NCBI GenBank assembly: GCA_973895155.1
Contig: OZ316898.1
Span: 4,216,480-4,280,479 of the forward strand
Direction: 5' to 3'
Length of the DNA stretch: 64,000 bases
Origin: Marsupella aquatica
Lineage: Eukaryota > Plantae > Marchantiophyta
Positions 11,128 through 45,214 of the stretch are shown in pieces (the stretch's first letter is position 1; each line of letters starts with the position of its first letter). The position numbers were made by a program, and so were the translations under genes. Below the pieces are notes generated by a model. It saw only the letters and a list, made by a program, of their open reading frames with translations, did no database searches and was not told the DNA's origin.

Positions 11128-11598
11128 CGGCGGAGTAGGATTAGAGTAGAGTTAGGAATAGCTCAATTAGGCTATAGGGACAAGAAACTGCCCTAGTTAG
11201 CGCAGCACTACCATGCTGTACAACCTGCGTAGATTAGGATCTTCTAATAAGACAAACCATTTTCCGGCCTGACAACCAACTTAGTTAGGACCTTAGCTAG
11301 CAAATCTTTGGGCGCGAGGGCACTCTGTTCCTCGGCCCTTAGTATTTAGTGCACCCCTTGGTAGAGGCAGGGGGATTTTTAGTCTCAATGTTGGACATCC
11401 GCGGTATGTGCGGGGAGTCCCCGACCTCTTGGAGTGAAAGAGTACCAAGGGGAGGGTGTAGGACTAAGCTCGTTGGGCGAGTGCGAAGCCGGGCTCCGTT
11501 GTAGTGTACATCCTCGGCCTCGGACCTGTTCATTCCAGGGCTTTCGGGTCAACTAAGTGTACGCATATGTCTCCTATGTAGTAAAATCCTTTCCCACT

Positions 11599-16295: not shown

Positions 16296-16364
16296 TACCT
16301 ACGCTTCCTTCCTAACTTCATATCTCACGACTTAAGAAATGCCCCCTCCATCTAGCGCCAAAAA

Positions 16365-24011: not shown

Positions 24012-26548
24012 CTACTCATCAATTATACCTTCCATGTAAATTTTGAGAGTTTTCAAAACATTCTTAGGAATTGTCAAACCTCTATCCATAATATTTTGTT
24101 CTTTAGCACCTGACTTAAACCCATACATTGCAGAATTTGCAAACTGCCAACTTTGAGTAACATTGTCAAACCCAGGATCCAGCTCCCAAGTCTTAGTGGT
24201 TTGAAAGCAACGTTCATATCGAACATCATCCTTTGCATCATGCTTACCATGTTTAGGCCTCCACCATTGTACTTGGAACATAGGAGCATTCCTAAGAGGA
24301 ATGCTCTCAACAGACGTTGAAGAAGACCCTTCAATATGTTGCAAATCTGTTGAGGGAACCTCATGGTTTGGATCCACACCACCCAAAGCTCGAACCAACC
24401 AGAAACACCCTTTGCCATTTTCTTGTTCCCATTCATCCTCTGGATGTAAAAATACAAAGGGACCTTCTTGAATATCTTGTAGAGGAATCCAACGTGCAGG
24501 TTCTCGCTCTTGTCGTGCACCAACAAAGGGTGCAGCTTGATCTTCCATCTCTTCCATGTACTCATTTTGAAGGTCCATCATCTCTGGATTTTGAGAAGGT
24601 TCACTTGACGGCGGAGATGTCCCCAAAATCATCTTGTAACCTGTGCCATGGTTAGTCTTTGGCCAAAAATCAGTTGTCAATGGCAAATGTCTTTCCCCCT
24701 CCCCTTCTATTGTAAGTTCCTCGGACAGTGCTTGCACAAGATTCTCCCAATATTTGACCAGAGGAAATCTCTCTTTATATGCTGCAGAGGTCTCATCCTT
24801 ACAACTTTTCTTCAAGAAATCAATATAGCGATTAAGGAATGGGATGATTTCTCCAGCCTTCTTTTGTACATCCCCAGATATAGGTTTTGCAAATGGTTGG
24901 CCTTCCGGTAAAATGAGCGCATTTGTGATGGGATCAGTTCTCCAAATGGACCTCCCCATTGCCGGAAGCCAAGGTTGCTTGACATGTGCTTTATATTGAT
25001 ACACTGGCACATTATCCCTCATGGAGAAAAGAAATGCCACTGGTTTTGAGTGACCTTCTATCTCTTTCACCTGGAAAGTTTTCAAATACTCCTTGTAAGA
25101 TGCAACCTCTTGAATCAATCATGGTACAGGATGAATGCTTTCACACTCCCAAACCTCAGCCATCAACCCCAAGAGGGTAGCAACCTCTTTGTATCTGACC
25201 TATTTGGATACTTGAGAAAATAATGCATCCACATCTTCATGGGTGTGGCCAACCATGAGGAATGACATTTGCACAGTTTCAAACACCCCCTGCTAACAAG
25301 CTCAGTGCAAAATGCCATCACATATTGATTTTTGTTATCTTTCCCTGAATTGTCCATCTGCAACGTTAGGTGCCTTGGTAAGGGCTTGAAAGAGCCCCTA
25401 GTAGTCTCAGGATCATCCTTAGAACCAACATCCACTGTGCTTGACTTTTTAGTCTCCTGACCATCTTCAATGCCTTGAAATCGAACAATTGAAACATTTT
25501 TGGGTTCCAAGTAAGCGGCCATAAATGCTTCAAAGTCTAGAAGGGACTGAAATATTGGCCTAGTTGCATTCCAATTCAATCCCTCAAGAAGGTCTCCAGT
25601 TTTGTCTCCTGTGTAATCTTCCAAATCTCGGAGGCATTTGGCCAAAGATGTCACGGTAAAGTCTGCATCTCCAGGCCAAAGTCCAGTCAAACTGAAATGT
25701 GTTAACATCTCAGTAAGAGCAATAGGCAAAGGCTGACCACTACCAGAGAGGGATTTTGGAGTGGGGACCAACCTGGGGATCCAAGTCTTGGCTTGATCCA
25801 TCTTATCGTGAATAATGCAAAGATAGTTTTGAGGATCCTTCTTTGCAAGAACCCTATGAGCATAGTAAACATATATTCTTGACATTTGTTCACGAAGATG
25901 TCGCGCTCTTTTCTCTTCAATCTCTGCACGCTCTTTTTTTCTCTTCTCCCGCATCAATTGATCTTTGAACTCAGTGCAAAATGTGCACTTGGCAAATGCA
26001 CTTCCCTTGTGAAAGTCAAAATTATCAAATGAGTTTTTCCAGATGTTGTACATAGTAACTTCAGTAACCTTAGCAAACCCATCTAATTCCATCTTAGTAA
26101 ACACCTCTTGGAAAATCTCCTTCTTAGTAAAACAAGATGGGAGCCGATATTCAATAGTGTCAGTGCCGTTGGACCCACCATAGGGAAGATGTGGCATTGG
26201 TTCCCCATTTTGGATTAAAATGGACTCCAACAAGGCGCGAGCGTGCAAAGTGCTTGATCGTGTCTTCCGTTGTCCCTGATTTCCATGGAAACCAATTATG
26301 CAACCAGCTTTGTATTGATTTTTGTAGTCATAGTACTTTGTTGTACTGAACCCATGCATTTTAATAAATGCATCTTTACAACCACACGTCCCTTTAGAAC
26401 AAAAAATCCCTTTCTCTTGACTTGCTCCTCTTTACACCCAAAGAGACTAAAGATGTGACTTGTTTTGTTGTCACTTGACATTCCATGGTATTCCCTCCTC
26501 ATTGCCTCTAAGTCCTCCCTAGGCATGTTCAAGCAACACTTCAGCTTG
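24012..26548 (-). pseudogene. Transposase, central and C-terminal part (DDD catalytic core), with frameshifts and stops
   Basis: CC..LKCC, (V)CKDAFIKMHGFS, FAKCTFC..H, IIHDKMDQ, LQMDNSGKDNKN, and after a frameshift at ~25290 FLMVGHTHEDVDALFS. Confidence 0.85.
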
Positions 26549-29500
26549 TGTGGTGCGTCCCATGGCTCCCTAAACCCAAGAAACCCCCCAGCTCAAGCCG
26601 ATTCCCGCAGGTTTCGTGCTTGGCGATGCCGTTTCCGCGGCTTAGCGGCATGGGACGCTGCTAACCTTCTACTACTACTATTAACATTTTACACACATAT
26701 ACTGGACAGATCCTTCATCGGGTCATGAGATACATAGCCGGCCTAATATAGGCCTTCCCCTGTCTTCCCCTGTCTTCCCCTCCGTCTTGTTAGGTATGTT
26801 TGGATTCCGCCGCCGGAATGATCCCCAATAGGCTTGGTTAAGCCGCTAAGACCTCTCTCAGCTCGACACATCCAACTCTCACTCCCCTGCTTACTTTCCT
26901 TCCTTCTGTTGATGTGGGCACTCTTCACACAAGTTAATGCGACACACAAATAGCAAAATGACTCATTCTGACTGAGTCATACCATGCACTTGCCATACAA
27001 ACAGTACATCTCATACACAAGTTCTGCGAACTAAGCCGTGAGGCCAACTCTATTCAGCTCTTAGGCATGAGGAAACATGAATATACACAAGGGTCACTGT
27101 ATGACTAACCGAGAGCTTCTTGTACTACTTGATCCCAGCCCGGCTGGTGCAAACTAAAAACTTGCTAAAGAAGAGGCCCTGAGCTCCCCGCTGCCCAGGT
27201 ACTTATCCTGGTAGTGGATCCGCCATTCTTTGCATTGTAAGCCTAATCTACTTAACAGTAATCTACTTGCCCGAATCTACCTATGTACAGCAAGGCAGGA
27301 GCACAAGTGTTGCTCCTACCAGTGGGACCGCAATCCCACTAAGCTAAGTGTCAGGGCCGCTCCTGGTTCTGATCCTAATCCTAAACGTGGAGATCCGCGC
27401 CCGCCCTGCCCACTCACGCCTCCTCCCTCCACGTCCGCCCTCCCTAAAAGGAACGGCGCCCTTGCACCGTCACGACACCGGTGGTGGATCCTCAATGGAC
27501 GCCCCCAACACTTCCTCCTCAGCCACTGCCGTTGGCCCGCCTACTGACAGATTACCTGCCCTTGACCGAGTCAACTCTCCATCGGCCTGACTGGGTCCAC
27601 CTTCGGCTTCAGCCTCGACACCGGCCTCGGCAATACCCACGGCTTTGGCCTCAGCCACTCCCACGGCTTCGGCTTCAGCCACTCCCTCGGGTAGTTGGAT
27701 CCTTAGCCGTGACCCTGTCTGGGGTCGGTGCTGGGTCTACCTCCTTGATCACCACGGCCTGTGAAGTCGTATTACTCCTTGACCCTGAAGGTTTCCGCTT
27801 CTTCTTCGTTGGTGGCTCGGCAGCTGGTCCCTTCCCCTTCCCACTTACTTCCGGCACTGGTGCAGGTGGCGCGGCTTGTCCTTCGGCAATTACCACCCCT
27901 GGTAACTGGTTTGTCCCAACAGGAGATGGACCTGCTGCAGCTAAGCATTTAAATACTGCGGCTTGTTTCTTCAGCCGCTCTATTTGGTTGTCGGCCCGCC
28001 GCTGTAGGTTCTCCATCTTCCTCATGATTTCCTCCAACTCCTCTTGGGTTTCATCCAGGTCCTTACGTGCCCCCTCCAGCTCATTTTTGGCCTCCTCCTG
28101 CTCCCTGTGGGCTTCCTCCAATTCCTTCTTCAAGGTAGCCCTCTCCTCCTGGGTTGCTCTTAGCTCCTTGTCGAGCTCTGCAATGATGACAGACTCCATC
28201 TGGTTCATCTTGGCGTAAGTCTGTTCGAGCATCTCGTCCTTCTCCCTTAGGTCGGCCTTGAAGCTGGCCGTCAGGGACGCAAGCTCCTGCTGCAACGCCA
28301 TAATCCCTTGATAGGATTTCCCTAACTCGACCTCCTTCTGCTCAAGGGCTCCGCGGATTTTCTCGAGCTCCCCTTTCAACGCCCATTCCTTTCTTTGGGT
28401 CTCCGCCATGGCCCGACTGTTGGCTGTTATGTGGGCCTCCTCTGTATTCTTCAGCTCTTGCTTCCACTTTTCCCTCTCTTTGATCGTGTCGGCCAACTCT
28501 TCCTGCGTCTGAGTCAGTTTATCCTTGATATTCTGATTATCAGCCTGCACGGCGTCCAACTGCCCCTGCATGATGTTCAGCTCATGTCGTTTAATCCGCA
28601 GTTCATCTTGGGCTTTCTTGGCCGCCCTTAGATCTTCAATCTCGGCTCCCATCCTCCTAAGCCGCCGAATGACCTCGTCCTTCTTGCTTCTCTCTAAAGC
28701 CACCGCTTCTTCTAATTGGTGCTTCTCCAACTGCTCCCTATGGAAAAAGGGTCCTACCTCCAACTCCTCTCCAAAGATGCCGAGCGCAAGTTCCCCACAC
28801 ATCTCACCATACTCCATGGCTCTATTCTTAGCGTAGGTGGAGTAAGTAGAAGTGATCGGCATCGCCCATCGTGGCCTCTGCTCCCAAGCCGTCCTGCGGA
28901 TCTCTTCAATCGTGGCTAGAGGTTTGCTTCCTTTTTCGGCTAGCCGCCTGATGTCCTCCGGCCAATCTCCTCCTGGTAAATCCTTTTCCTTAGCCAGGGC
29001 GGCCTCTTCCTCCTGCTTGATTCGCTCCTGAAATTCCTGCACCGTCTGTTTTATGCCGTCGAAGCTCGGGGGAGCAACATCTGGTGGGGGAGACTCAGGG
29101 CTACTCTGCTGGTTGGGGTCCCCTCGCACTACCCTTGGAAGTGTGGGGACAAACCGGCCACAGGTCCTTACTCCTGGAACGTGATGGTCCGACCCATAGC
29201 CGGAATTATCATGGCTGCAGTCCTCCACTGCCTCCTCTACCTCTTGGATTTCCGGCTTCTCCCTCTCCTCTTCCTCGGTAGGAGCTTCAGGCAATTCTGC
29301 CTCAGATTCGGAGCTTGAGGTTCCCACGTACATTCGAACACCTGGCTTGGATTCCGGCCTGATTCTCTCCTTGTCTCCAGCAAAGGGGTTTTCTCTTGTG
29401 AGCCGGTGTAGGCCTACCTCTGTAGTAGTGTCCTGCATTGTTGCCGTTGCCGTTGTTGTTGCCGATGCCGATTTCTTTTCTTTCTCCAGTAGTTTCAGCA

Positions 29501-31185
29501 GACTCTGCATGCCTGGTTGCTGCATCGGCAAGTCTTCCTTCCTGGGCCTAAACACCTGCTCGATCGTAGGACTAACAGGTGGTTGAGGCTTCTCAGCCAA
29601 CGGCCTCGGCGTTGGAGCTTCCTCGGGTGCCCTTACCTGCAGGGGAAGTACCGGGGCAAAAGTCTGACCTCTGGCATACCGGCACAACAGCGGCATGTGA
29701 TAGCCAAGCCGCGACACGCTCCCCATGCCGATTACCTACTGCTCCTCCTTTAAGATCTTCTTCAATTGGTTGAGGAGGTACCCGTTGTAGTCCCGGCTTG
29801 GGTCTGGCCTTTCTGCCAAATAGACCTGTGCCTTGCCGATCTCTGCCCTCGGCAAGTTACAATGCATGGTCACCCGCAAGAAGTCGATCATCTCTCCTAT
29901 GTGCGGGTTGGTGCAGGTGTTCCGGAAGAAGCCATTCTTCGTTGATGGCCCGGGGAACGACCGGAACTCCTTGTCAGGCAAGGTCTTCCTGGTATCAACT
30001 TTGGTCTTATTGCCCATCGGCAAGCCAAACACTTCGGCAATCACCTTGGGAGTAAGATAGAAATCCTTCCCATATATCCTCGTGCAATTGGTCTCGGGTT
30101 CCCATGACCCCACGAATTCTAATAGGTCTGACTCCGGTACCTCCGGCTTCAGCCATGGTAATCTTACAAAGGCCTCCAAGCCGGATCCGGCCATGAAGCC
30201 TTGGTACTTCTTGGTCTGCATGGCCGTAAAGCATGCATCCTCCTCCCGTGCAAAATGTAGTTGCACCTCCACCGGTAGGGTTGCCGCCCAGCCCTTCCAG
30301 GTGTCATCCCTGGTTGGAATGGCCTTGATGGGATCGACCTCCTCCTCTTCGGCTTCTCCCTGCCTCCTGCTCTGCTGCTCGGCTGGCTTCTTTGGTGCCG
30401 CCGACCTCGTTCTTTTTGCCGGGGTGGCTTCATCGTTGACGGCTCCCTTCCTCTTCATCTCTGCTGCCGTGGAGGTTTCTCCTAGCACCGTTGCCTGGGT
30501 CCACCTTTCCGTGCTACCCTTTAATTCCCAGTGTATGTCGTTGCAGTTCTTGATGGCCTCTCGGATGCCGACGACGCTGTCTTTGCAAAACAGAAGATCG
30601 TCGAGTTGATTGGAAGTAGGCGTCCACAGGAACTCGTCCTTGATGAGTTCGCCTCCTAAGAAAGCCGTCTTCTGCAGCTCCCACAATCGAGCGAGCTCCT
30701 GCCATTCTCGAGCTGCCCTTTCTGACTCCTCGTCCTCGTAAGTCTTGATGTACTCAGTTGCCCGTTCGAACAGGCATCCCCAGAAATGTGCCGCTTGATT
30801 GACGTTGCTCATACCCTCCTTAGGTTGATCGTCGGTATCTACTCTCTCCCCGAGTGCTTGCCTAAGCAGCTGACAGTAGTTGGCCTCCCGTAGTCGTCTG
30901 CCTAGTTCGTGCTCGCAAATGAGCCACCATCTCCTGCAAGCGCTCCTTACCCCTCTCCTCTGCCGGTCCTTCTTCCCGTTGATCCTTCCTAGCCGCCGAC
31001 GCTTAACGCGCCCTAACCCTAATCGGGTTTTCACCCTCAGCCTTACCTCCGGCCTCTGCCCGGGTTCCATGGTTGCCCCTAATTGTTTATATTTTCCTTG
31101 TTTTGTCACTATACTAAGGTGTTCCTAGGGTGCCTTCCTGCTTTACCCACTTAACCGGCCGAGTGATTCCTGTCTAGGCATCACA
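26549..31185 (-). repeat. 3' LTR of A1 (4637 bp)
   Basis: Sense TGTGATG..CACCACA; duplicate of 37410-42046. Confidence 0.97.
27470..31109 (-). pseudogene. LTR-encoded ORF (~1200 codons), one in-frame TAG (29736-29738) and a late frameshift (~27680)
   Basis: 457-aa and 683-aa ORFs are in one frame; first ATG ~31070; core LEAFVRLPW..LLEFVGSW..VYGKDFYLTP..VFGLP; long coiled coil; KKKRK. Confidence 0.88.
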
Positions 31186-31200
31186 TAGCTCCCCACTTAA
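31186..31200 (-). promoter_or_regulatory. Polypurine tract overlapping the integrase C-terminus
   Basis: AAGTGGGGAGCTA directly before the LTR TG; the integrase stop lies inside the LTR (31174). Confidence 0.75.
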
Positions 31201-34200
31201 TTGTGAAGCGTCCTCGCGAACAACTTCATCTTCGTCCATATAGTATTTCTTGAGGCGGTCATAATGGATGCGAACTGGATATACCTCTCCCGTAATGTTG
31301 GCCAATTGCACGGAGCCATTGGGGAACATCATGGTTACTCTAAAGGGTCCTAACCAGCGAGTGTAAAGCTTTCCTGGAAACCTACTATACCTACTGTCAT
31401 AAAGTAGCACAAGATCACCGGTATGAATACTAACTACTTTTAACCTTTTATCATACTGCTGCTTCATGATATTCTGTCTATATTCTACTCTCTCGGCTGA
31501 AATCATTCTCGCTTCCTCTAAAGCTTCTAACCTATATTCTCGCTCCTTTAGGCTCTCCTCCGCTCAGGCTCTTTCCTCAATTGTAACTTGAAATGTCGGT
31601 ATCTCAAGTTGCATGGGTACCAAGGCTTCTTGTCCAAAGGTTAAGAAGAACGGTGTATGACCGGTAGTGGATTTATAGGCCAGATTGTAAGCAAAAACAG
31701 CAGCAAACAATTTATCATCCCAATCGAGTTTGTTCTGAGCTACTGTCTTGTTCAATATCTTTCCTATGATTCCGTTTGCTCGTTCTGTCAACCCGTTTGC
31801 CTTTGGATGGTAGGGAGTAGTAGGCCTATGTTTAACTAAATACTGCTTATTTAAACGACTAATTATATCATTCAAAAAATGGGTTCCTCTATCACTAACT
31901 AATTCTAGGGGTGCTCCATACCTGGTGAAGATCTGCTCATACATGAATCTAGCCGTAGTAATTGTATCATCCTTCGTTGTTGGTCTGGCCTCTACCCATT
32001 TAGTTGCATAATCCGTAGCCAGGATTATGTACTTGTTCCGTCGAGGGTGGGTCAGTGGTTTCAGAGGTCCAATGTAATCAATACCCCACTTCTCGAATGG
32101 TGCTAGAGGTAGAATAGGGTGCAGTGGATGCCTGGTGGACGCCCTTGGTCCTCCCGCTCGTTGACAAGGATCGCATTGTTTGATAAACTGATAGACATCT
32201 TTGTGCAAGGTGGGCCACCAGTAACCGGCATTTAATATCTTCTTAGACGTGGTTACTGGGGCAAAATGTCCTCCGGCCTCCTCTCCATGCATGGCCCGTA
32301 GGACTCATTTTACCTCTCTCTTCTCCAAACACCTTTGAATCGTGCCGTTGATTCCATGCTTGTGCAGTATGCCTTTAATGCACTGATACTGTCTGACCTT
32401 CCGCACAAAGACTGCGGCTTGCTCTCGGCTTAATCCTGGCTATAATCTGGAAGTGCTGAGAAATTGTAAAATCTCAGGGTACCATGTACCAGCTATTTCC
32501 ACAACGAATAGCTCCTCGTCGGGGAATCGATCATCAATGCAATCCGTGGCAGGTTTACCTGTGATCCTTGAAAAGAAGTCGGCGTTGGCATGTAACTTTC
32601 CTGGCTTGATCCTCAGCTCATAGTCAAACTCCTGTAATAGCAAAATCCATCTTGCTACTCTGCCTGTAAGGTCCGGCTTATTGACTAGGTACTTCAAACT
32701 TTCATGATCAGTATGAAAGATTACCTTGTACCCTAGTAAATAATGCCTAAACTTTTTACAAGAATAAATGACTCCTAATGCTTCTCTTTCCGTGGTAGAG
32801 TAGTTCCGTTCGGCATCGGCAAGCTGACGGCTTGCGAAGTATATGGGATGGTCCCTTCCTTTCTCATCCAACTGACTTAGTACTGAGCCAATACAGAAGC
32901 CCAAGACATCTACAAAAACATGAAAATCTTTGTTCCAGTCCGGTGCTATCATGACTGGGGCCTCTACTAACATCTGCTTCAATTCTACCACCGCTGTGAC
33001 TCGTTCGGGTGTGGGTTCGAAGTCTGCTCCTGCCTTGAGCATATTGGTTAATGGTAAAGCCAGCTTGGCAAAATCCTTGATGAACCGGCGATAGTAACCA
33101 ATGCATCCCAAGAAGGATCTTACATCCTTTATGTTCTTAGGTTGCATGATATCTAGCCATACTGCTAGCTTACCTTTGTCAATCTCAATGCCCTTCCTTG
33201 ATACCTTGTGACCTAGTAGCACCCCCTCGGTTACTGCAAAAAAACATTTATCTGGGTGTAACTTGAGACCCACCTCTCTACATCTCATGAAGGTTTTCCT
33301 GAGGTATTTAGCATGTTTCGATGCCTTCCCGAATACTGCAAAGTCATCAATGAAGATTTCCATGAACTTTCTCAAGTAATCATGAAAAATGTTCACCATT
33401 AATCGTTGGAACATAGCTGGTGCGTTGCAGAGTCCAAACGACATACGATTGAAGACATAGATCCCCCATTCCGTGATGAAGGCCGTCTTGATTTGGTCTT
33501 CCTGCCGAATCCTGATTTGGTTATAACCAGAGTATCCATCCATGAATGAATATAGTTCATGACTGGCTACCATGTCTAGTACCATATCAATAAACGGTAA
33601 AGGAAAATGGTCTTTTAATGTTGCTTCATTCAGCTTCCTGTAATCCTGACAAACCCGGATCTTGGGTTTACCATCGGGTCCAGCTTTCTTGGGAACTATC
33701 ACAATTGGAGACACCCAGTCTGAATGCAGGACTGGAGTGATGAATCCAGCTTCCACTAGTTTGTCGATTTCTGTTTTGACCAGCAGGGAATACTTCGGGT
33801 TCATCCTTCGAATTGGTTGTCGAAATGATTTGGCTCCTAACATGAGATCAATTCGATGTTCCCCTAGTGTTGGATCTACTCCCTTTAGATCTTGGTGACT
33901 CCATGCAAACACATCCTGAAATTCAATCAATAAGTCACTGATCTCTTTCTCGAGCTCAGGTGCTAGGTTTCTCCCTAAGTTCAGTTCTCTTCCCTCTCCT
34001 AAGTCGAGCTTCCGATATTGCCGTGCTTGGATCATATTAATCTGCTTCTTCAAATTCGGGTCCAGTTCGGCTTCCAGTCTCTCTAATCTCATACCTCCAT
34101 AAACTGGGATCTCGGCTGGACTAGCCGAGTCGGTCCCTTCCTTGGTGTCCATAGATTGTCCCCTTACCGGTCTATTCGGTTTTGAATTAGTGGTCGGCTC

Positions 34201-34346
34201 CCCTTCCTGCCTTGGCTCTGGATCGTGTCTGTCCATCTCATCCACCTCTTGCTCCTGAGAGTTAGGCCGCTGTGCTCTCTCGGCTTCTAATAGGGCCTCA
34301 ATTTGTTCTGCCCTCGTAATCGGCTTGTATGCCGATCCCTTGGTAT

Positions 34347-37340
34347 TTAATTCCTTGCCGATGATCGATGGCGTTGTGGACCCCGTCGGCTCTGCCACAA
34401 CGCCTGCAGAAAATCCACTGTCCCTGCTACTGCTCCCCACTTAGCCATTTCATCCAATTGGTCTACATCCTTAACTTCCTCCGGAATTGCAGCTAAAAAG
34501 GTGGATTCTATTGTAAAGCAGTCCTCGACCTCTTCGTCTTCTTCTTCCAAGTCACCTTCCATTGGTTCTTGCCATAATCCGCTGGGGGGTACCTCTGGTC
34601 CAAAGACACCTTCTTCGGTTAGGTTAGTGAGGCATTCTAACCAACGTACTTCATCGGCTGACTCCAGTCCACTGTCGTACCCATCTACTTCCCTTATGCT
34701 TTTCCTACGGTCATCCTTAGTGTCCCAGGATACCGTGATAGAGGGGGTCCCGAAAGTGAACTGCTTTTTACCCCAATCTTCTATTACCTCGGCTAGGTAC
34801 AGCCATGGCCTACCAATCAATAGCCGGAATGACGTAGGATTTACCGGCTTCATTACTACATAGTTAATGCTAAAGAAGATACCTCCTATCTCTGTCTTGA
34901 TGCCGGTTAACACTCCCGTCGGAATGACCTGATATCCATTGGCCATGTTCAACACTCTTCCAGTCATCTCCGGTGTTAGACCCCACCCTTTTGCTGTTGA
35001 ATCAATCATAATACATACCCCTGATCCTCCATCGATGGGTACCCGTAGTAATAATTCTCCTTGAATCATTAATGGTAATGCTGGGGCTCCTTGATCTTCT
35101 TCTATCATTAGTACGTCGGATCTGGTTGCTACCTTGGGTAATCTCGGCTTGCCGAGAATAGCCTTCCTTAATTGCTTCCGGAAGTACGGGCTATTTTTCA
35201 ATAGTTGACCTACTGTTGCCGAGACTCTAGATTCTAGTACATCTTTAGCCAGGTCATAGGGAACAATCGGCTTCTCTTCTGGTGGTGTTTCCGTCTTGGA
35301 TTCGGCCAGTTTTGCCACGCTAGTCTCCACAGCTGTTGGGTCTTCCGAAGCAAACAATGCTTTTGCTCGTTTTACATCCTTGGCAATGGCTTCGGTATTC
35401 TCCAGGGTTTCTAATTCTCTTAGTTGTTCCTTAACACTAGCCGTAACAGAGGGGTAGAACAACTTAGGATGATCTCGATTGAAGTCGCTATCTTGTGAAG
35501 GATTGGTTTCACTGGTGGGCTCATGGCTTACCTGTATTGCCGGAGCCCTCCCTTCTCCTTCTGTTGATGTTGACGAAGAGTCGATCCTTTCCTCCGTAAC
35601 CTTCCCTTTATTTTTGGCCAGCCCATCCCACCTTTCCTTCCTTCTGGTAGATCGAGTAGAGACCCGGTAGCAATCATGATCTAAATCCTCCTCTGAGAAG
35701 GTTGATAGGGCTTCGGCCTCATCATCAGATGGTACGAACTCTGCCTCGGCATCCTCTTGCCATCCTAGTTCGATGTGGTTGATTTGAACTCCTCCGGGGG
35801 TAGTACCTGGCGGTAAGATCTTGATCGGCAAAAGCTTATGATTTGCGGCCAGGCCTGCCAACCAAGTAGGACATTGCCCTAGCATATGACCTTCCTGTCG
35901 GCATCCCATACATAGCTGAGCTGGTTGTCCATCACCCTGTTTGCGTGCATTCGGGCATTCTCTAGCAAAATGGCCAGGTTGACCACAATTATAGCACGCC
36001 GCAAATCTTTGCACATTCGGCCTAGGAGGTACTGACGGGTTCTGAATAATCCGAGGATACATCTCTCCTGGATTGTTCCTTAACCCTGACCACAGAGATG
36101 CAGGTCTGTTGGATAGGTCTCGTGCTCCAGTCTCACTGATGCCGAAAACACTATCAGCGGCATCTCCCAAAAAGTACTCTACTTCTCCCTGACATGGTCT
36201 GATCTCGGCCACATGCCGAACATGATTAGTATTAAGCTTAGGACACGCATCTTTATGGTGTCCGGTTTTATAACATAAGGCACACCATACAGAGCTATCC
36301 TCCTGTACTACCTTCTTCTTTGGTTTTACCTCTGCAATGATAGCCTTAAGTTGCTCGGTAAGGGCTACGATGTTATCTGGTGGCTTAGCCTCCATCTTGA
36401 CTTTCGTCTTCCCTCTCCTTCTGCCCTTCCTTTTCCTAGTTTTTTCTTCTTCAGAACTAGAAGATGACTCACTCTTGCTACTCCCACTATCCGAGCTTGA
36501 CTTATCACTTCTAGACTTCTTGGAATGTTTCTTCTTCTTATCTTTTTTCTTATGGGGTGATCCCTCCTCTGATGAGGAACTCTCAGACTTAAGCTGTTTC
36601 TTCCGGCTTGTGATATCTGCATTAATGTATAATTGAATATCCTTAATTGCTTCGGCTAAAGTCTCCGGGTTCTCCTTCCTAATTGCAAAACTCATCTTCT
36701 GTGGCAAAGCATTCACCAACCATTGAAGTTGCATACCTTCAGATGCATTGGTCTTTGTACGTCTTACCAGTTTCTGAAAGCGTTGCAAGAACTTCCTGAA
36801 GGATTTGTTCTCCTTGAACCGAAGTTGTCCCAACTTCAGCACTGCTAGTTCTGAAGTTCCAATGGGTCGAAACTCCTTAACAAAGAGTGTTTTGAAGATA
36901 TCCCAGATGGCTTGATCTTCCACATCTAATGCTCTGTACCAAGGCCTAGCCTCACCCTTGAACAGGCCGGGAAGAATCTGCATCTTGATGGCCGATTCTC
37001 CATTTGCTGCAGCGGTTCCCTCGAAATCATCCAACCATTCGTCCGGATCCTCATCTCCTCTCCCATGAAATGCCTTGTAATGTATGCGCGACCGCTGGCT
37101 CAATCTGGTCCCTGGCCTCTCGTCTGGCCGTGCCTCTGGTTCCCCCATGTCGGTTGGAGACTCACTTCTCCTTACCGACTCTTCTTCTGGTATGTCTTCT
37201 TCGACGCCACTTCCAGTTTCGGAGCTACCAGCTCTTTCTGCCCCTCTTAGTCGCTGTGTATCATGCCACCCGGCGAGCTGCTGCAGTCGAGCTCTCTCCC
37301 GTTGAATCACTCTTTCTTCCCTCGGCGTAAGGTCAGTCAT
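34347..37340 (-). CDS. gag: Gypsy gag-protease polyprotein (997 aa, intact)
   Basis: EDPDEWLDDFE gag motif; three CCHC knuckles; protease VPIDGGSG..LLIGRPW. Confidence 0.93.
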   Translation of the reverse strand: MTDLTPREERVIQRERARLQQLAGWHDTQRLRGAERAGSSETGSGVEEDIPEEESVRRSESPTDMGEPEARPDERPGTRLSQRSRIHYKAFHGRGDEDPDEWLDDFEGTAAANGESAIKMQILPGLFKGEARPWYRALDVEDQAIWDIFKTLFVKEFRPIGTSELAVLKLGQLRFKENKSFRKFLQRFQKLVRRTKTNASEGMQLQWLVNALPQKMSFAIRKENPETLAEAIKDIQLYINADITSRKKQLKSESSSSEEGSPHKKKDKKKKHSKKSRSDKSSSDSGSSKSESSSSSEEEKTRKRKGRRRGKTKVKMEAKPPDNIVALTEQLKAIIAEVKPKKKVVQEDSSVWCALCYKTGHHKDACPKLNTNHVRHVAEIRPCQGEVEYFLGDAADSVFGISETGARDLSNRPASLWSGLRNNPGEMYPRIIQNPSVPPRPNVQRFAACYNCGQPGHFARECPNARKQGDGQPAQLCMGCRQEGHMLGQCPTWLAGLAANHKLLPIKILPPGTTPGGVQINHIELGWQEDAEAEFVPSDDEAEALSTFSEEDLDHDCYRVSTRSTRRKERWDGLAKNKGKVTEERIDSSSTSTEGEGRAPAIQVSHEPTSETNPSQDSDFNRDHPKLFYPSVTASVKEQLRELETLENTEAIAKDVKRAKALFASEDPTAVETSVAKLAESKTETPPEEKPIVPYDLAKDVLESRVSATVGQLLKNSPYFRKQLRKAILGKPRLPKVATRSDVLMIEEDQGAPALPLMIQGELLLRVPIDGGSGVCIMIDSTAKGWGLTPEMTGRVLNMANGYQVIPTGVLTGIKTEIGGIFFSINYVVMKPVNPTSFRLLIGRPWLYLAEVIEDWGKKQFTFGTPSITVSWDTKDDRRKSIREVDGYDSGLESADEVRWLECLTNLTEEGVFGPEVPPSGLWQEPMEGDLEEEDEEVEDCFTIESTFLAAIPEEVKDVDQLDEMAKWGAVAGTVDFLQALWQSRRGPQRHRSSARN
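34357..34416 (-). promoter_or_regulatory. Candidate -1 ribosomal frameshift signal
   Basis: G_GAT_TTT, 5-nt spacer, 10-bp stem GGCGTTGTGG/CCACAACGCC, loop GCCGA able to pair with downstream TCGGC; conserved at 13314-13373. Confidence 0.72.
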
Positions 37341-37386
37341 TACCTACGCTTCCGTTCTAACTTCATATCTCACGGCTTAAGAAATG

Positions 37387-37405
37387 CCCCCTCCATCTAG
37401 CGCCA
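37387..37405 (-). promoter_or_regulatory. Primer binding site
   Basis: TGGCGCTAGATGGAGGGGG, 4 nt from the 5' LTR; identical in A2. Confidence 0.82.
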
Positions 37406-37409
37406 AAAA

Positions 37410-40400
37410 TGTGGTGCGTCCCATGGCTCCCTAAACCCAAGAAACCCCCCAGCTCAAGCCGATTCCCGCAGGTTTCGTGCTTGGCGAGGCCGTTTCCGCG
37501 GCTTAGCGGCATGGGACGCTGCTAACCTTCTACTACTACTATTAACATTTTACACACATATACTGGACAGATCCTTCATCGGGTCATGAGATACGTAGCC
37601 GGCCTAATATAGGCCTTCCCCTGTCTTCCCCTGTCTTCCCCTCCGTCTTGTTAGGTATGTTTGGATTCCGCCGCCGGAATGATCCCCAATAGGCTTGGTT
37701 AAGCCGCTAAGACCTCTCTCAGCTCGACACATCCAACTCTCACTCCCCTGCTTACTTTCCTTCCTTCTGTTGATGTGGGCACTCTTCACACAAGTTAATG
37801 CGACACACAAATAGCAAAATGACTCATTCTGACTGAGTCATACCATGCACTTGCCATACAAACAGTACATCTCATACACAAGTTCTGCGAACTAAGCCGT
37901 GAGGCCAACTCTATTCAGCTCTTAGGCATGAGGAAACATGAATATACACAAGGGTCACTGTATGACTAACCGAGAGCTTCTTGTACTACTTGATCCCAGC
38001 CCGGCTGGTGCAAACTAAAAACTTGCTAAAGAAGAGGCCCTGAGCTCCCCGCTGCCCAGGTACTTATCCTGGTAGTGGATCCGCCATTCTTTGCATCGTA
38101 AGCCTAATCTACTTAACAGTAATCTACTTGCCCGAATCTACCTATGTACAGCAAGGCAGGAGCACAAGTGTTGCTCCTACCAGTGGGACCGCAATCCCAC
38201 TAAGCTAAGTGTCAGGGCCGCTCTTGGTTCTGATCCTAATCCTAAACGTGGAGATCCGCGCCCGCCCTGCCCACTCACGCCTCCTCCCTCCACGTCCGCC
38301 CTCCCTAAAAGGAACGGCGCCCTTGCACCGTCACGACACCGGTGGTGGATCCTCAATGGACGCCCCCAACACTTCCTCCTCAGCCACTACCGTTGGCCCG
38401 CCTACTGACAGATTACCTGCCCTTGACCGAGTCAACTCTCCATCGGCCTGACTGGGTCCACCTTCGGCTTCAGCCTCGACACCGGCCTCGGCAATACCCA
38501 CGGCTTCGGCCTCAGCCACTCCCACGGCTTCGGCTTCAGCCACTCCCTCGGGTAGTTGGATCCTTAGCCGTGACCCTGTCTGGGGTCGGTGCTGGGTCTA
38601 CCTCCTTGATCACCACGGCCTGTGAAGTCGTATTACTCCTTGACCCTGAAGGTTTCCGCTTCTTCTTCGTTGGTGGCTCGGCAGCTGGTCCCTTCCCCTT
38701 CCCACTTACTTCCGGCACTGGTGCAGGTGGCGCGGCTTGTCCTTCGGCAATTACCACCCATGGTAACTGGTTTGTCCCAACAGGAGATGGACCTGCTGCA
38801 GCTAAGCATTTAAATACTGCGGCTTGTTTCTTCAGCCGCTCTATTTGGTTGTCGGCCCGCCGCTGTAGGTTCTCCATCTTCCTCATGATTTCCTCCAACT
38901 CCTCTTGGGTTTCATCCAGGTCCTTACGTGCCCCCTCCAGCTCATTTTTGGCCTCCTCCTGCTCCCTGTGGGCTTCCTCCAATTCCTTCTTCAAGGTAGC
39001 CCTCTCCTCCTGGGTTGCTCTTAGCTCCTTGTCGAGCTCTGCAATGATGACAGACTCCATCTGGTTCATCTTGGCGTAAGTCTGTTCGAGCATCTCGTCC
39101 TTCTCCCTTAGGTCGGCCTTGAAGCTGGCCGTCAGGGACGCAAGCTCCTGCTGCAACGCCATAATCCCTTGATAGGATTTCCCTAACTCGACCTCCTTCT
39201 GCTCAAGGGCTCCGCGGATTTTCTCGAGCTCCCCTTTCAACGCCCATTCCTTTCTTTGGGTCTCCGCCATGGCCCGACTGTTGGCTGTTATGTGGGCCTC
39301 CTCTGTATTCTTCAGCTCTTGCTTCCACTTTTCCCTCTCTTTGATCGTGTCGGCCAACTCTTCCTGCGTCTGAGTCAGTTTATCCTTGATATTCTGATTA
39401 TCAGCCTGCACGGCGTCCAACTGCCCCTGCATGATGTTCAGCTCATGTCGTTTAATCCGCAGTTCATCTTGGGCTTTCTTGGCCGCCCTTAGATCTTCAA
39501 TCTCGGCTCCCATCCTCCTAAGCCGCCGAATGACCTCGTCCTTCTTGCTTCTCTCTAAAGCCACCGCTTCTTCTAATTGGTGCTTCTCCAACTGCTCCCT
39601 ATGGAAAAAGGGTCCTACCTCCAACTCCTCTCCAAAGATGCCGAGCGCAAGTTCCCCACACATCTCACCATACTCCATGGCTCTATTCTTAGCGTAGGTG
39701 GAGTAAGTAGAAGTGATCGGCATCGCCCATCGTGGCCTCTGCTCCCAAGCCGTCCTGCGGATCTCTTCAATCGTGGCTAGAGGTTTGCTTCCTTTTTCGG
39801 CTAGCCGCCTGATGTCCTCCGGCCAATCTCCTCCTGGTAAATCCTTTTCCTTAGCCAGGGCGGCCTCTTCCTCCTGCTTGATTCGCTCCTGAAATTCCTG
39901 CACCGTCTGTTTTATGCCGTCGAAGCTCGGGGGAGCAACATCTGGTGGGGGAGACTCAGGGCTACTCTGCTGGTTGGGGTCCCCTCGCACTACCCTTGGA
40001 AGTGTGGGGACAAACCGGCCACAGGTCCTTACTCCTGGAACGTGATGGTCCGACCCATAGCCGGAATTATCATGGCTGCAGTCCTCCACTGCCTCCTCTA
40101 CCTCTTGGATTTCCGGCTTCTCCCTCTCCTCTTCCTCGGTAGGAGCTTCAGGCAATTCTGCCTCAGATTCGGAGCTTGAGGTTCCCACGTACATTCGAAC
40201 ACCTGGCTTGGATTCCGGCCTGATTCTCTCCTTGTCTCCAGCAAAGGGGTTTTCTCTTGTGAGCCGGTGTAGGCCTACCTCTGTAGTAGTGTCCTGCATT
40301 GTTGCCGTTGCCGTTGTTGTTGCCGATGCCGATTTCTTTTCTTTCTCCAGTAGTTTCAGCAGACTCTGCATGCCTGGTTGCTGCATCGGCAAGTCTTCCT

Positions 40401-42046
40401 TCCTGGGCCTAAACACCTGCTCGATCGTAGGACTAACAGGTGGTTGAGGCTTCTCAGCCAACGGCCTCGGCGTTGGAGCTTCCTCGGGTGCCCTTACCTG
40501 CAGGGGAAGTACCGGGGCAAAAGTCTGACCTCTGGCATACCGGCACAACAGCGGCATGTGATAGCCAAGCCGCGACACGCTCCCCATGCCGATTACCTAC
40601 TGCTCCTCCTTTAAGATCTTCTTCAATTGGTTGAGGAGGTACCCGTTGTAGTCCCGGCTTGGGTCTGGCCTTTCTGCCAAATAGACCTGTGCCTTGCCGA
40701 TCTCTGCCCTCGGCAAGTTACAATGCATGGTCACCCGCAAGAAGTCGATCATCTCTCCTATGTGCGGGTTGGTGCAGGTGTTCCGGAAGAAGCCATTCTT
40801 CGTTGATGGCCCGGGGAACGACCGGGACTCCTTGTCAGGCAAGGTCTTCCTGGTATCAACTTTGGTCTTATTGCCCATCGGCAAGCCAAACACTTCGGCA
40901 ATCACCTTGGGAGTAAGATAGAAATCCTTCCCATATATCCTCGTGCAATTGGTCTCGGGTTCCCATGACCCCACGAATTCTAATAGGTCTGACTCCGGTA
41001 CCTCCGGCTTCAGCCATGGTAATCTTACAAAGGCCTCCAAGCCGGATCCGGCCATGAAGCCTTGGTACTTCTTGGTCTGCATGGCCGTAAAGCATGCATC
41101 CTCCTCCCGTGCAAAATGTAGTTGCACCTCCACCGGTAGGGTTGCCGCCCAGCCCTTCCAGGTGTCATCCCTGGTTGGAATGGCCTTGATGGGATCGACC
41201 TCCTCCTCTTCGGCTTCTCCCTGCCTCCTGCTCTGCTGCTCGGCTGGCTTCTTTGGTGCCGCCGACCTCGTTCTTTTTGCCGGGGTGGCTTCATCGTTGA
41301 CGGCTCCCTTCCTCTTCATCTCTGCTGCCGTGGAGGTTTCTCCTAGCACCGTTGCCTGGGTCCACCTTTCCGTGCTACCCTTTAATTCCCAGTGTATGTC
41401 GTTGCAGTTCTTGATGGCCTCTCGGATGCCGACGACGCTGTCTTTGCAAAACAGAAGATCGGCGAGTTGATTGGAAGTAGGCGTCCACAGGAACTCGTCC
41501 TTGATGAGTTCGCCTCCTAAGAAAGCCATCTTCTGCAGCTCCCACAATCGAGCGAGCTCCTGCCGTTCTCGAGCTGCCCTTTCTGACTCCTCGTCCTCGT
41601 AAGTCTTGATGTACTCAGTTGCCCGTTCGAACAGGCATCCCCAGAAATGTGCCGCTTGATTGACGTTGCTCATACCCTCCTTAGGTTGATCGTCGGTATC
41701 TACTCTCTCCCCGAGTGCTTGCCTAAGCAGCTGACAGTAGTTGGCCTCCCGTAGTCGTCTGCCTAGTTCGTGCTCGCAAATGAGCCACCATCTCCTGCAA
41801 GCGCTCCTTACCCCTCTCCTCTGCCGGTCCTTCTTCCCGTTGATCCTTCCTAGCCGCCGACGCTTAACGCGCCCTAACCCTAATCGGGTTTTCACCCTCA
41901 GCCTTACCTCCGGCCTCTGCCCGGGTTCCATGGTTGCCCCTAATTGTTTATATTTTCCTTGTTTTGTCACTATACTAAGGTGTTCCTAGGGTGCCTTCCT
42001 GCTTTACCCACTTAACCGGCCGAGTGATTCCTGTCTAGGCATCACA
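37410..42046 (-). repeat. 5' LTR of A1 (4637 bp)
   Basis: Duplicate of 26549-31185; about a dozen substitutions seen by eye, no indels. Confidence 0.97.
38331..41970 (-). pseudogene. LTR-encoded ORF, 5' LTR copy
   Basis: Same 457+683 aa ORFs and the same TAG as in the 3' LTR. Confidence 0.88.
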
Positions 42047-43202
42047 TCTTGCAACAACCTTCTCTTTGGATGGAATCAATGGACTCCTCGTTAATTTTCA
42101 AAAGTGCCCTCGACTCCAAATGCCTTTTCTTCCTCTCCTCAAGATCAAATTTTGTCCTCCTAATGAAATTGTATGGTCTTTTTGTAGGTTTACCATCACC
42201 ATCCGAATCCGGATCGCCCTTAGTTCGACCCGACTCCATCCACTTCTCTAAAACTTCCTCAAGGATATCCCCAAGAAACCTTTGAGACGAAATCAATAGA
42301 AGGGATTTGATTTCCCACCTCACCAAGCTAGGGGTACCAACACGGATATTTGGAAATAATCCGGGTTCATTGATATTCACAACAGCAACACCAACATGAT
42401 CTGCACCAAGAAGTTCATCGTCAACGGCACCTGTTTCAAATGGGATCGTGATAACACCTGTTGCAACCTTTCGACAATGAGAAGCGTCATACAAATCAAC
42501 CTCCTCCGCCATCCAGTTGGAACGTAGTGTAAAATCTTTTAATGGAAGATCATTGAAAATATTTGAACTACCAAACACGCCAAAATCTCGTAGAGTGCCC
42601 TTTCTAGAAACATGCGCAACATCCCAGATAACCCAGGTATGCAAGGCCTCTTCTATTGTATCAGCTCCAGGGTGCGAGTATGGCAATTTTTGATTTCCCT
42701 TAACAATATCAAATATTCTTATACTAATGCGACCAACCCCGAGTGTTTCAGTATGACAAATATCCATCGGATTTGTCTTGAAAATGACTCCATTTGCAAC
42801 CAACTGATCAAAAATGAACATCTAAACTTCATCTCCTTCCTTGAACACGTCCTCTTCAACCCTTGCATCAATTTTGGATTTATCATTTCCAGCATCTCCA
42901 GCCAAAGAGAAATCATCGACATTGATTCTTCGGCGCAGAGTTGATGACCTCAAGTATGCCAATGCACAATCCCAAATCACGCAGGAGTCAATTGCCTCAG
43001 CCAATGTAGAAAATTTGGGCGAAGGAAATGGAAGTTGACGCAATGCATCAAAACACTTTTCGATCAATACCCCAATTCGATTGTCCCCTAGACAAATATT
43101 CTGTATAGTATCCTGGGGGTCAACCTTTTGAACTATCCCAATTGCCGTTTCAAATCCATCGATCACCAATGACACTTCATCCCCTCGTGTAAAATTGATC
43201 AT
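42047..43202 (-). pseudogene. Transposase N-terminal part with three tandem Tnp1/En-Spm(TnpA)-like beta domains; one in-frame stop (42822)
   Basis: Three repeats of GDEV..VA.G......LG....V.......LP.P....T..EA....VIW; continues in frame across the Gypsy insertion. Confidence 0.75.
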
Positions 43203-43324
43203 GATAGCGGACTATCTGTATTCAAATAAAGTTAGAAATTGTTAAGTTCCCCATGTTACAATCATGTTTCAAAATCTGGACTCTCCTCCAAAAAATATTG
43301 TAAAATCACTCAAAACCCTAAATA

Positions 43325-43660
43325 CATTCAAGTCGGGTCGGAATTATTTCGACCCTCCTCCAACATTATGTCTTGAAATGATTGAATTGACTAAACATTT
43401 ACAAGTCGGGTTGGAATTATTTCGACCCTCCTCCAACAATATGTCTTGAAATGATTGAATTGACTAAACATTTACAAGTTGGGTCGGAATTATTTCGACC
43501 CTCCTCCAACAATATGTCTTAAAATGATTGAATTGACTAAACATTTACAAGTCGGGTCGGAATTATTTCGACCCTCCTCCAACAATATGTCTTAAAATGA
43601 TTTAATTGACTAAACATTGATAAGTTGGGTCAGAATTATTTCGACCCTACTCCAACTATT
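43325..43660. repeat. 73-bp tandem array (~4.6 copies) with an imperfect palindrome
   Basis: Units start at 43330, 43403, 43476, 43549 and 43622; core GGGTCGGAATTATTTCGACCC; inverted core at ~43759-43775. Confidence 0.92.
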
Positions 43661-45214
43661 AAGTTGAAATTATGTCAAAACTATTTGTGAAACTATCTTG
43701 CTTATGCTTTTATATACCAGTTTAAAATGCTAGTTAAGATGACATAGTCAGGTCGGCACGAAATAATTCCGACCCACTTCTAGAAACTATGTTAGTAATC
43801 ACATAAAGGGGTACAGTAAGTTCTACACATGCTAGAATGTGGATAAAGGTCTAGAATGAGTAAAATATATGATCTAGAACCTAATGTGTAAATCTTAATC
43901 TAGGTTTGGCTTAAAGGTATTGAATTAGATGTACTTGAGCTAGTACTTCTAAGATAAATAAATAAAATCACTAACCTGCTCCGCAATATATCTCTGTCCA
44001 CCCTTGTACAAGCTAAATGGGTACCTTGGATGCCAGCATTGTAACTCTTAGCACCACAGTGCTCACCAGTGCCCTTACTAAACCTTGCATTCAACCATGC
44101 GGACCTAAACAAGGCACTCGGACAGAGGAGAGTCAGTGATCGTACCAATCACTGTCTAAATGACAATGAACCAAAAAATGGATTGTGGGAGGTCTATACT
44201 CAGTTTGAGAGGCAAAAAGCTTACACATTACCCAGCACACGAGTGGACACCAACAGATCGGGCACGGGTGGATGAGGCACGCACCCAGCACACAAGTAGA
44301 CATCGGATAGGGTGTCAGCCAATCACTCACGAGTGATAGGTGAGTTGCGAGCACACACCGCTGACAGCTCGGAAATTTAAAATTGGTAGGTGAGTCGCGA
44401 GTGGTCGTGAGTGGTCACACCATCGGTGACTCACGATCACATGCACCGAGGAGGGTCTCCATCATTGGCGCGCATTGATGCCTCCGTACCCTCTCGGATC
44501 CTTGCCTCCTTGGACTCCTCGCTCACAGGGGGTATAGGAAGGCAGGCCTTGCGCTTGAGGCCTCATTTCCTTGCCTCCCTCTTGCCTCCTCTCTCGTCTC
44601 CTCACTCCTTGCCTCCCTCTTGCCTTGCTCTAGGGCTTTTGTTTTTGCCTCGCTCTTGGGATTTGTTTTCCGCCTCGCTCTAAGGCTTTTATTTCCGCCT
44701 TGCTCCCTTCCCTTTTGGGTCGCTCCCTCGATCATTGTTTGCCTGTTAGTGCCCTCTTGCAGCCTGTGGCATTCTCCATTGCTACCACGTGTCATCTTAA
44801 ATCTCACTCGCCCCTTACAATGTCTACTTCCTCCAGTTCTGAAGCTTCCACCACCTCCGCCAGTTCTCAAGAGTCATTGAACTTCAATTATAACTCTCTG
44901 TATGAATATGACCCTGAAGACCCGAATGTCCAAAAATTGGTTAACAATGCGTTGGAGGCATCAAAGAAAGCCCAGTTAACTTTTCCACGTAAGGCACCAC
45001 CTGCTTCAACTTCTTGCCTCGCCCTAAGGGCGAGGCAACTTTACTTTAATTTGGATTTCAAACTTCTTATTAGGAAAATTTCTATATTCCTTTGCAGTCG
45101 CCTCGCCCCAAGGTCGAGGCGACGTCTACTTCATTCTAGATTTCTTGTTGCTCCGAAGGCGTATTGGACCTTGTATCTTACATTAATAAAGGATCTTTAG
45201 CTATATTCTATTTT

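Follow-up and report, generated by a model that had tools for sequence, protein, structure and literature searches.

An accessory gene inside the long terminal repeats of an Athila-like Ty3/gypsy lineage in the liverwort Marsupella aquatica

A reading frame in both long terminal repeats of element A1

Long terminal repeats (LTRs) of retrotransposons are usually treated as non-coding, and the formation of solo LTRs is usually seen as the disarming of an element by its host. Can an LTR be a gene in its own right? This question is raised by a 64,000-bp window of the liverwort Marsupella aquatica (contig OZ316898.1, positions 4,216,480 to 4,280,479), to which all coordinates refer unless stated otherwise. 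At 26549-42046, the window contains a young Ty3/gypsy element of 15,498 bp, here called A1, which lies on the minus strand, as do all its features given below. Two-thirds of each of its LTRs consist of a frame that, judged from its substitution pattern, is a gene kept by purifying selection. We are nearly certain that this layout is real, i.e. that an accessory gene resides in the true LTRs of a bryophyte-type, Athila-like lineage.

The 5′ LTR (37410-42046) and the 3′ LTR (26549-31185) are each 4,637 bp long and bounded by TG..CA. Self-comparison of the window revealed 11 mismatches and no indel between them (99.76% identity). Together they account for 59.8% of the element and leave an internal part of 6,224 bp, in line with an initial annotation of the sequence, which had proposed 4.6-kb LTRs making up about 60% of the element, an internal 6.2 kb of almost pure gag-pol with about 45 nt from the primer binding site (PBS) to the ATG, and a polypurine tract (PPT) inside the integrase. 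The PBS (37388-37405) begins with TGG 4 nt past the 5′ LTR, and the gag ATG lies 69 nt past the LTR end and about 46 nt past the PBS. The PBS may be of the tRNA-Asn type; a search for tRNA genes in the 64-kb window found none. The PPT (31189-31198) is embedded in the integrase coding region, with 3 nt between it and the 3′ LTR, and the integrase frame crosses it and stops 10-12 nt inside the LTR. A 5-bp target site duplication (TSD) is likely, as CAAGA on the 5′ side (42047-42051) and CAAGC on the 3′ side (26544-26548) match at four of five letters. Short LTRs flanking an internal open reading frame (ORF) were rejected as an interpretation of the 4.6-kb unit. Its two ends share no repeat in the self-comparison, and it is therefore not a short-LTR element with an internal ORF.

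The frame in the LTRs runs in sense orientation to A1 and takes up 68% of each LTR. It spans 1,131 codons (3.4 kb) between the first ATG at 41931 and the stop at 38536, with a TAG at codon 445 in both LTRs. Selection was assessed against a second copy of the same family, A2 (11599-20974, minus strand; 87% identical to A1), which comprises a 5′ LTR (16365-20974) with the LTR gene, PBS, gag and part of the reverse transcriptase (RT) region, and is truncated at 11599. The ratio of nonsynonymous to synonymous substitution rates (dN/dS; Nei-Gojobori, codons with stops or gaps excluded) between the two LTR frames was 0.29 (bootstrap confidence interval 0.23-0.37; 1,105 codons), compared to 0.99 and 1.10 in the two other frames. 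The value is thus far below 1 rather than near it, and the protein-level conservation in A2 that had been proposed initially is borne out. The indels between the two frames are in-frame (12, 36 and 21 nt), and the same comparison gave 0.15 for gag-protease and 0.11 for RT. The best conserved part, which we refer to as the core (residues 251-470, counted from the first ATG), also reached 0.11. Antisense frames were rejected as a side effect of coiled-coil codons.

Codons 1-86 have a dN/dS of 1.07, and the frame from M87 on has 0.26 over 1,020 codons. Because codons 1-86 evolve neutrally, we rejected the first ATG as the start. The gene likely starts at M87 (41673) and would encode about 1,045 aa in 3.1 kb. 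Thus defined, its two copies lie at 38536-41673, with the premature TAG at 40597-40599, and at 27675-30812, with the identical TAG at 29736-29738. The single ORF of about 3.6 kb and the protein of about 1200 aa per LTR given in the initial annotation therefore need correction, both in length and because the TAG splits the frame in both LTRs. The neutral in-frame extension upstream (41674-41931) is likely a 5′ leader and carries GTAAG donor-like sites at 41907 and 41811.

The domain order of the internal part is gag, protease, RT, RNase H and integrase. A gag-protease frame (34347-37340) has Pfam matches to Retrotrans_gag and zf-CCHC, and the protease, which lacks a Pfam match, was placed by position and motif. 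The RT-RNase H-integrase frame (31174-34440) ends inside the 3′ LTR; its RNase H directly adjoins the integrase, and neither a chromodomain nor an extra RNase H was matched in Pfam searches of gag-protease, RT-RNase H and the integrase core. Gag-protease and RT occupy different frames in both A1 and A2, and the slippery-type heptamer GGATTTT in their overlap (34410-34416; also in A2) is followed by a predicted hairpin (-23 kcal/mol). On this sequence evidence, a -1 frameshift is likely at this heptamer; it would separate RT from protease, and not protease from gag. The C-terminal part of the integrase was read by eye, and its end resembles those of relatives: the integrases P0047, P0049 and P0052 terminate in VREDA, as does that of A1.

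The pol region contains three premature stops (32440-32442, 32305-32307 and 31564-31566), and A1 is thus a defective copy. The two LTRs differ by only 0.24%, yet pol carries three stops and a fourth stop is common to both LTRs. The few LTR differences, together with the shared and pol stops, make it likely that a defective parent gave rise to A1 by mobilisation in trans.

Copies, relatives and surroundings

Is the LTR gene a peculiarity of A1? The A2 ORF is open at the position of the A1 TAG and has defects of its own, namely one inserted nucleotide near 18679 and, at codon 927, a stop. Fourteen of the 16 listed public sequencing runs contain part of the stretch, none of them recorded as RNA, and four (X1, X2, X3 and X6) were mapped to the internal region and the 5′ LTR of A1. 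A letter other than that of the stop was found at the TAG position in 277,675 of 281,742 depth in X1, 590,843 of 606,454 in X2, 337 of 344 in X3 and 28 of 28 in X6. As nearly all depth in the four runs lacks the TAG letter, the stop appears peculiar to the A1 copy. Programmed read-through was accordingly rejected: the TAG is missing in A2 and in most of the run depth.

In X1, summed depth, which does not equal copy number, was 285,000-752,000 in the 12 LTR bins, 55,000-177,000 in the 16 internal bins and 19,000 in the flank bin. The ORF bins were not lower than the leader or tail bins and hence gave no sign of a large class without the ORF. Four joints end exactly at 37410 or 42046 (among 15 of 205 joints and 12 further rows listed), as expected for a family inserting into its own copies. 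A one-off duplication of 4.6 kb with short LTRs elsewhere in the family, the possibility that the initial annotation had set against its reading, was thus not what the runs showed.

Three further homologues in the window were found with the core profile (26-29% identity); we refer to them as family B. B1 (8070-11598, plus strand) is a 3′-truncated LTR with an 860-codon homologous frame from 8545 that contains six stops. B2 (54286-57740, plus strand; TSD TATGG) carries a decayed homologous gene with an internal deletion, and B3 (52829-60261, minus strand; TSD CATTT), which is split by the B2 insertion, also carries a decayed one. B2 and B3 have TG..CA ends and perfect 5-bp TSDs and lack gag-pol, and are therefore true solo LTRs. 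Between B1 and B3, dN/dS was 0.20 over 829 codons, compared to 1.17 and 1.53 in the other frames. Among 12 of 885 loose ends listed for two runs mapped to B2, none revealed a family-B PBS or PPT. It had been proposed that the accessory gene is duplicated at every insertion and left intact in solo LTRs. The first part agrees with an ORF that sits inside true LTRs. Concerning the second, the two solo LTRs of family B retain the gene, though not intact, since each of the six LTR ORFs in the window is disrupted. As a side observation, B1 and A2 are truncated at a common junction (11598/11599), and this shared breakpoint suggests a deletion that joined two elements.

More distant homologues were sought with HMMER in 1.84 billion representatives, yielding 21 matches at E 0.001, of which most are fragments without a name and those with a name come from the liverwort Calypogeia fissa. 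Four of its 'unnamed protein products' (P0012, P0019, P0150 and P0151) are core homologues and possibly LTR genes that were mistaken for host genes in annotation, an error to which solo LTRs with a gene are prone. P0010 was discarded as a low-complexity match (bacterial Ig domains). A word-index protein search gave no match with the LTR ORF and one with alignment A3, and scans for relatives gave none in genome contigs and no loci in viral contigs.

For the RT, the closest named matches are from Riccia (56%) and Marchantia (50%), and two metagenome relatives, L001 and L002, reach 56%. A tree of RT-RNase H (FastTree; without REXdb references) included A1, L001, L002 and the 102 of 120 listed matches with at least 380 residues covered. 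A1 groups with L001 and L002 (support 0.997), then with Riccia (0.989), and the bryophyte-type group thus formed is sister to angiosperm sequences. Only L001 and L002, among 46 metagenome loci, reach a recognisable 3′ LTR of the A1 clade. Their 3′ junction is built like that of A1, with the integrase stop, the pre-PPT motif, the PPT and then TG, and in L001 this start of the LTR is matched, in inverted form, by the LTR end that precedes the PBS. The pre-PPT motif TTCGCG..GAC/GTC..TCACA.TT is common to A1 (31199-31220), L001 (its positions 7338-7373) and L002 (6113-6147), and likely acts in cis, in plus-strand priming or in integration.

Inside the LTR, an ORF begins at +661 in L001 and +515 in L002 and runs off the contig in both. 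The core profile has no significant match in any of the 46 loci. HHalign aligned the L002 ORF to it with a probability of 53% and an E value of 1.3e-4 over 106 columns, whereas HMMER gave only an iE of 0.19. Homology of the L002 ORF to the core is likely on this basis. The presence of an LTR ORF also in L001 and L002 suggests that the layout is older than one family. Given at least two families of one genome and two more distant relatives with an LTR gene, solo LTRs of this lineage would start out as gene copies. A one-off duplication, an assembly artefact or a functionless passenger would fit the fact that every copy in the window is broken. The chance of any of these is nevertheless negligible in view of the TSD, PBS and PPT at the repeat ends, the 11 LTR differences, dN/dS values of 0.2-0.3 in two families, solo units with TSDs and the same layout in L001 and L002.

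Other mobile sequences surround these copies. DNA-transposon-like frames flank A1 at 24012-26431 and 42042-42821 (both minus strand) and at 47635-51354 (plus strand), with a match to DUF7869 (E 2.5e-11); within the last of these regions, 47635-49617 shows a weak match to N6_N4_Mtase (E 0.0025) and 50293-51354 a match to NIF phosphatase (E 1e-16). A decayed Ty1/copia polyprotein (Pol_BBD, gag_pre-integrase, rve, SH3) lies at 597-3326 on the plus strand. The window further contains tandem arrays at 5989-6186 (18-bp unit), 43279-43673 (73), 45206-45724 (65) and 62916-63147 (about 115), as well as inverted repeats at 4453-4877/7359-7793 and 1669-2037/21754-22144.

The LTR protein, its expression and its possible role

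The LTR protein consists of an N-terminal domain, the core, an acidic/Pro linker, a coiled-coil region and a basic tail. The coiled-coil-type region of about 270 residues contains 40% K/R/D/E and 1% Pro, and basic motifs are present as PAKRTR and PTKKKR. Acidic linker, long coiled coil and basic motif resembling a nuclear localisation signal had all been recognised correctly at the outset. No membrane segment was found in the protein (best 19-residue hydropathy 0.9). An env-like or cell-to-cell movement protein, suggested by the term env-like for the sense extra ORFs of Athila and SIRE in PMC7264820 and PMC6317226, is very unlikely given the lack of a transmembrane stretch, the basic nuclear-type motifs and the highly charged coiled coil.

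The core is probably a remote relative of Athila ORF1, Transposase_32 and the plant mobile domain (PMD). In the ESM Atlas, the L002 ORF scored 0.91 to Transposase_32 and ATHILA clusters (recognition 2785; eight of the ten best named matches agree; one source), and the A1 core scored 0.84 to ATHILA ORF-1/Transposase_32, which is below the reliable level and a lead only. The link to Transposase_32 or PMD had been raised initially; it finds weak support in these scores and none in Pfam and profile searches. The core with its 31 aligned members matched no Pfam family (E up to 1; including PF03078, PF20167 and PF10536), the core profile failed to find three PF20167-bearing proteins with HMMER and hhalign, and PDB sequence searches with the core returned no match at E 10. 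AlphaFold2 models from 20- and 31-row alignments were of low confidence (pLDDT 45.1 and 45.9), and fold searches with them in PDB and viral structures gave nothing at E 0.001 or Z 8; the best hits (Z 3.8 and 5.1) were unrelated helical chains. The low-confidence core model has a helix-hairpin-helix pattern. By eye, the core motif W-E-P-E-T, hairpin, L-T-x-x-x-I-A-x-x-F-G-L-P resembles the PMD. A structure of VANC21, an accessory protein of VANDAL transposons, was reportedly described by Tanaka in 2026; the two AlphaFold2 models speak neither for nor against a fold of this type in the core. According to PMC13547354, the VANC domain resembles the PMD of MAIN/MAIL1, and coiled coils are predicted to mediate the oligomerisation of both VANC and the Athila domain.

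How might the gene be expressed? The sequence TATAAA at 41947-41952 (LTR +95), identical in A2, is likely a promoter. In family B, TATAAAA lies at about +360, upstream of the ORF, in all three copies and is the single TATA per LTR, and TATA-like words precede the ORF at +430 in L001 and +331 in L002. On the other side of the ORF, a T/GT-rich stretch (37780-37960), highly conserved in A2, is likely the poly(A) region; poly(A)-type T/GT-rich sequence is found 450-540 nt from the LTR end in family A. Because a TATA box precedes the ORF in families A and B, L001 and L002, each LTR is likely a transcription unit of its own, with promoter, ORF and poly(A) region. Transcription would start after the TATA at +95, cross the ORF and end in the T/GT-rich tail, and most of the LTR would be the repeat region R. 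Reverse transcription tolerates a very long R, since strand transfer is possible anywhere in it. Genomic RNA would be produced when the 5′ poly(A) region is read through, and the gag-pol message perhaps when the ORF is spliced out by way of the leader donors, altogether an unusual predicted RNA layout. A2 retains both GTAAG sites of the leader and, across the LTR, six of eight such words, which makes this a weak signal. The LTR also contains telomere-like words, TTAGGGTTAGGG in the leader (41860-41880; kept in A2) and TTTAGGG near the LTR end (37425-37440).

A realistic, if less probable, layout is that of sag in mouse mammary tumour virus (MMTV), in which the ORF would lie in an expanded U3 (the unique 3′ region) with its own promoter, and genomic RNA would come from a second promoter in the LTR tail. 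This alternative is a matter of position alone and can be combined with either function discussed below. It would have originated when the PPT moved to the integrase end and the LTR engulfed an extra ORF of the Athila type that lay on the 3′ side. The sag gene of MMTV is part of U3 and has a U3 promoter (PMC9412291), the region between pol and the 3′ LTR is where extra ORFs occur most often (PMC7264820), and in L001 a further TATA-like word, TATAAAAG, lies 150 nt short of the LTR end. This word would suit a separate promoter further downstream and speaks against a long R. However, the sole tail TATA candidate in A1 (37611) is lost in A2, the LTRs of family B contain a single TATA each, which precedes the ORF, and in L001 an AATAAA and a T/GT-rich stretch lie upstream of the tail TATA and would leave no R. 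Moreover, no relative with an ORF between pol and a short LTR occurs among the 46 loci, a small sample. Of the likeness to MMTV sag and nef drawn in the initial annotation, the gene in the LTR thus stands, and its place in U3 is uncertain, as the only clear TATA lies upstream of the ORF and points to a long R.

A hint of function came from short words containing CpG, which were tested against 60 dinucleotide shuffles and against synonymous shuffles; an order-3 Markov test masked the words because its background contains them. CGGC was the top 4-mer of family A, with 57 occurrences compared to 22.7 expected from dinucleotide shuffles in the internal part of A1, 63 compared to 24.4 in the LTR ORF, 27 compared to 12.1 in the non-coding LTR and 118 compared to 45.4 in A2. 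Top 4-mers in three control regions and the three B copies reached a z of 3.6 at most. The word accounts for 146 of 435 CpGs in A1 and 116 of 345 in A2, compared to a share of 0.18-0.20 of the CpGs in family B and of 0.09-0.14 in the rest of the window. Under synonymous shuffling, z was 5.7 in the LTR ORF and 3.7 in gag-protease. In the metagenome relatives the word was a different one: CCGGA occurs 188 times in L001 and 189 times in L002 (34 and 30 expected; synonymous z in pol 7.9 and 11.6), and TCCGGA 57 times in L001 (1-8242) and 56 times in L002 (1-7517), compared to 4-5 expected (z >20), in LTR and gag-pol alike. By synonymous shuffling, the window's copia and DNA-transposon ORFs were enriched in neither CGGC nor CCGGA. 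CpGs in the word were also kept more often than others, both between family-A copies (101/137 compared to 152/247, p 0.018; 96/114 compared to 158/228, p 0.0026) and, for CCGGA, between L001 and L002 (72/86 compared to 155/314, p 4e-9). The conservation test for CGGC was flat in family B and in L001/L002.

Family-specific words fit a sequence-specific anti-silencing system like that of VANC; a host factor could also explain them. Taken together, we tentatively propose, at close to even confidence, an Athila-like Ty3/gypsy element with a selected accessory gene in both LTRs, whose product would be a nuclear coiled-coil oligomer that binds a family-specific CpG word to resist silencing. The core would belong with the Athila ORF1, Transposase_32 and PMD domains, whose relatives VANC and MAIL1 act on chromatin, and the protein, made from full copies and newly formed solo LTRs, would act in trans on those family members that are rich in CGGC.

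Several findings weigh against this proposal, in addition to the broken copies and the searches with the core. CGGC is not enriched in RT-RNase H (z 1.7) or integrase (z 0.3) under synonymous shuffling; family B lacks a strong word although it carries the gene; the word was picked from the same sequences in which it was tested, and codon constraint may inflate its conservation. In addition, CpG observed/expected is 0.63-0.72 in family A, so that CpGs have been lost all the same, and the words are 4-6 bp long and dispersed in coding DNA, unlike the motifs of VANC.

The LTR protein might instead serve replication or targeting, as a particle scaffold, in nuclear import or by tethering to heterochromatin, with the word due to a host factor site or to context-dependent methylation. 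The integrase without a chromodomain match, the commonness of nested insertions (joints at termini; B2 inside B3), the gene without a strong word in family B and the prediction that accessory domains of Athila and ATLANTYS oligomerise and contact host proteins (PMC13547354) are in favour of such a role. It is less likely all the same, as two gene-bearing lineages have two different words that are enriched in neither the copia nor the DNA-transposon ORFs of the window, and a particle protein would gain little from retention in solo LTRs.

Anti-silencing may be extended to an old bryophyte Ty3/gypsy lineage in which the LTR is a self-contained gene for an anti-silencing protein, with its own CpG word per sub-lineage and solo LTRs as trans helpers; in this breadth the proposal is doubtful. 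If it holds, CpG words would be written even into gag-pol codons, as a retrotransposon counterpart of VANC, and solo LTRs, normally a dead end of host recombination, would remain trans-acting helpers. The extra ORFs of the Athila/Transposase_32 type would likewise gain a function. With a candidate target word per family (CGGC, CCGGA), the idea is directly testable.

Comparison with known systems

Among plant elements, A1 most resembles Athila (REXdb non-chromovirus/OTA/Athila) in lacking a chromodomain and an extra RNase H, in its likely 5-bp TSD and in its large size. The extra ORF of Athila also has a coiled coil, and by language-model features the A1 core is near the PF03078/PF20167 clusters. 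The PBS of Athila is of the Asp type in 72% and of the Asn type in 12% of cases in the REXdb table. In contrast, the ORF of A1 lies inside the LTRs, twice per element, and not between pol and PPT; its internal part is almost pure gag-pol, its LTR protein is without a Pfam match, and its RT belongs to a bryophyte group that is sister to the angiosperm group. Phygy and Selgy, non-chromoviruses of non-seed plants, share with A1 a polyprotein that spans nearly the whole internal part (PMC6317226). They differ in a 4-bp TSD, a Trp or Ala PBS, mean lengths of 8.6 and 5.0 kb and no listed extra ORF, compared to the 5-bp TSD, 15.5 kb and LTR gene of A1.

Large conserved accessory ORFs and long LTRs are likewise known from Ogre/Retand (PMD PF10536, Transposase_28) and from Retrosat2/RIRE3 with ORF0. 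LTRs of Retrosat2 exceed 3.2 kb and those of non-chromoviruses reach about 5 kb. However, the ORFs of these elements are internal, up- or downstream of gag-pol, and many are antisense, and A1 lacks the extra archaeal-type RNase H of Tat elements (Ogre, Retand, TatI-III). Sources including PMC6317226, PMC7264820, PMC3485330, PMC5418596, PMC12885004, PMC7466625 and bioRxiv 2024.04.02.587720, 2024.09.27.615353 and 2026.08.24.746577 place plant extra ORFs up- or downstream of gag-pol in the internal region. We found no description of an LTR-encoded ORF in a retrotransposon in a literature in which subscription journals were thinly covered, and the element tables of PMC6317226 may list cases.

With VANC of the VANDAL (MuDR) transposons, A1 shares an accessory protein with a coiled coil and the enrichment of a short motif that differs between families, which holds for family A (CGGC) and L001/L002 (CCGGA) and not for family B. 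VANC has a PMD-like domain; for the A1 core, a fold match was not obtained. Unlike A1, VANDAL is a DNA transposon, and VANC binds family-specific motifs of 8-9 bp in non-coding tandem arrays (PMC5735166) with proven activity, whereas that of the A1 protein is hypothetical. In position, the counterpart is sag/naf of MMTV, a protein gene in the LTR, present at both ends and equipped with an LTR promoter. Yet MMTV is a retrovirus, its gene lies in U3 and encodes an unrelated protein, whereas the ORF of A1 fills 68% of the LTR.

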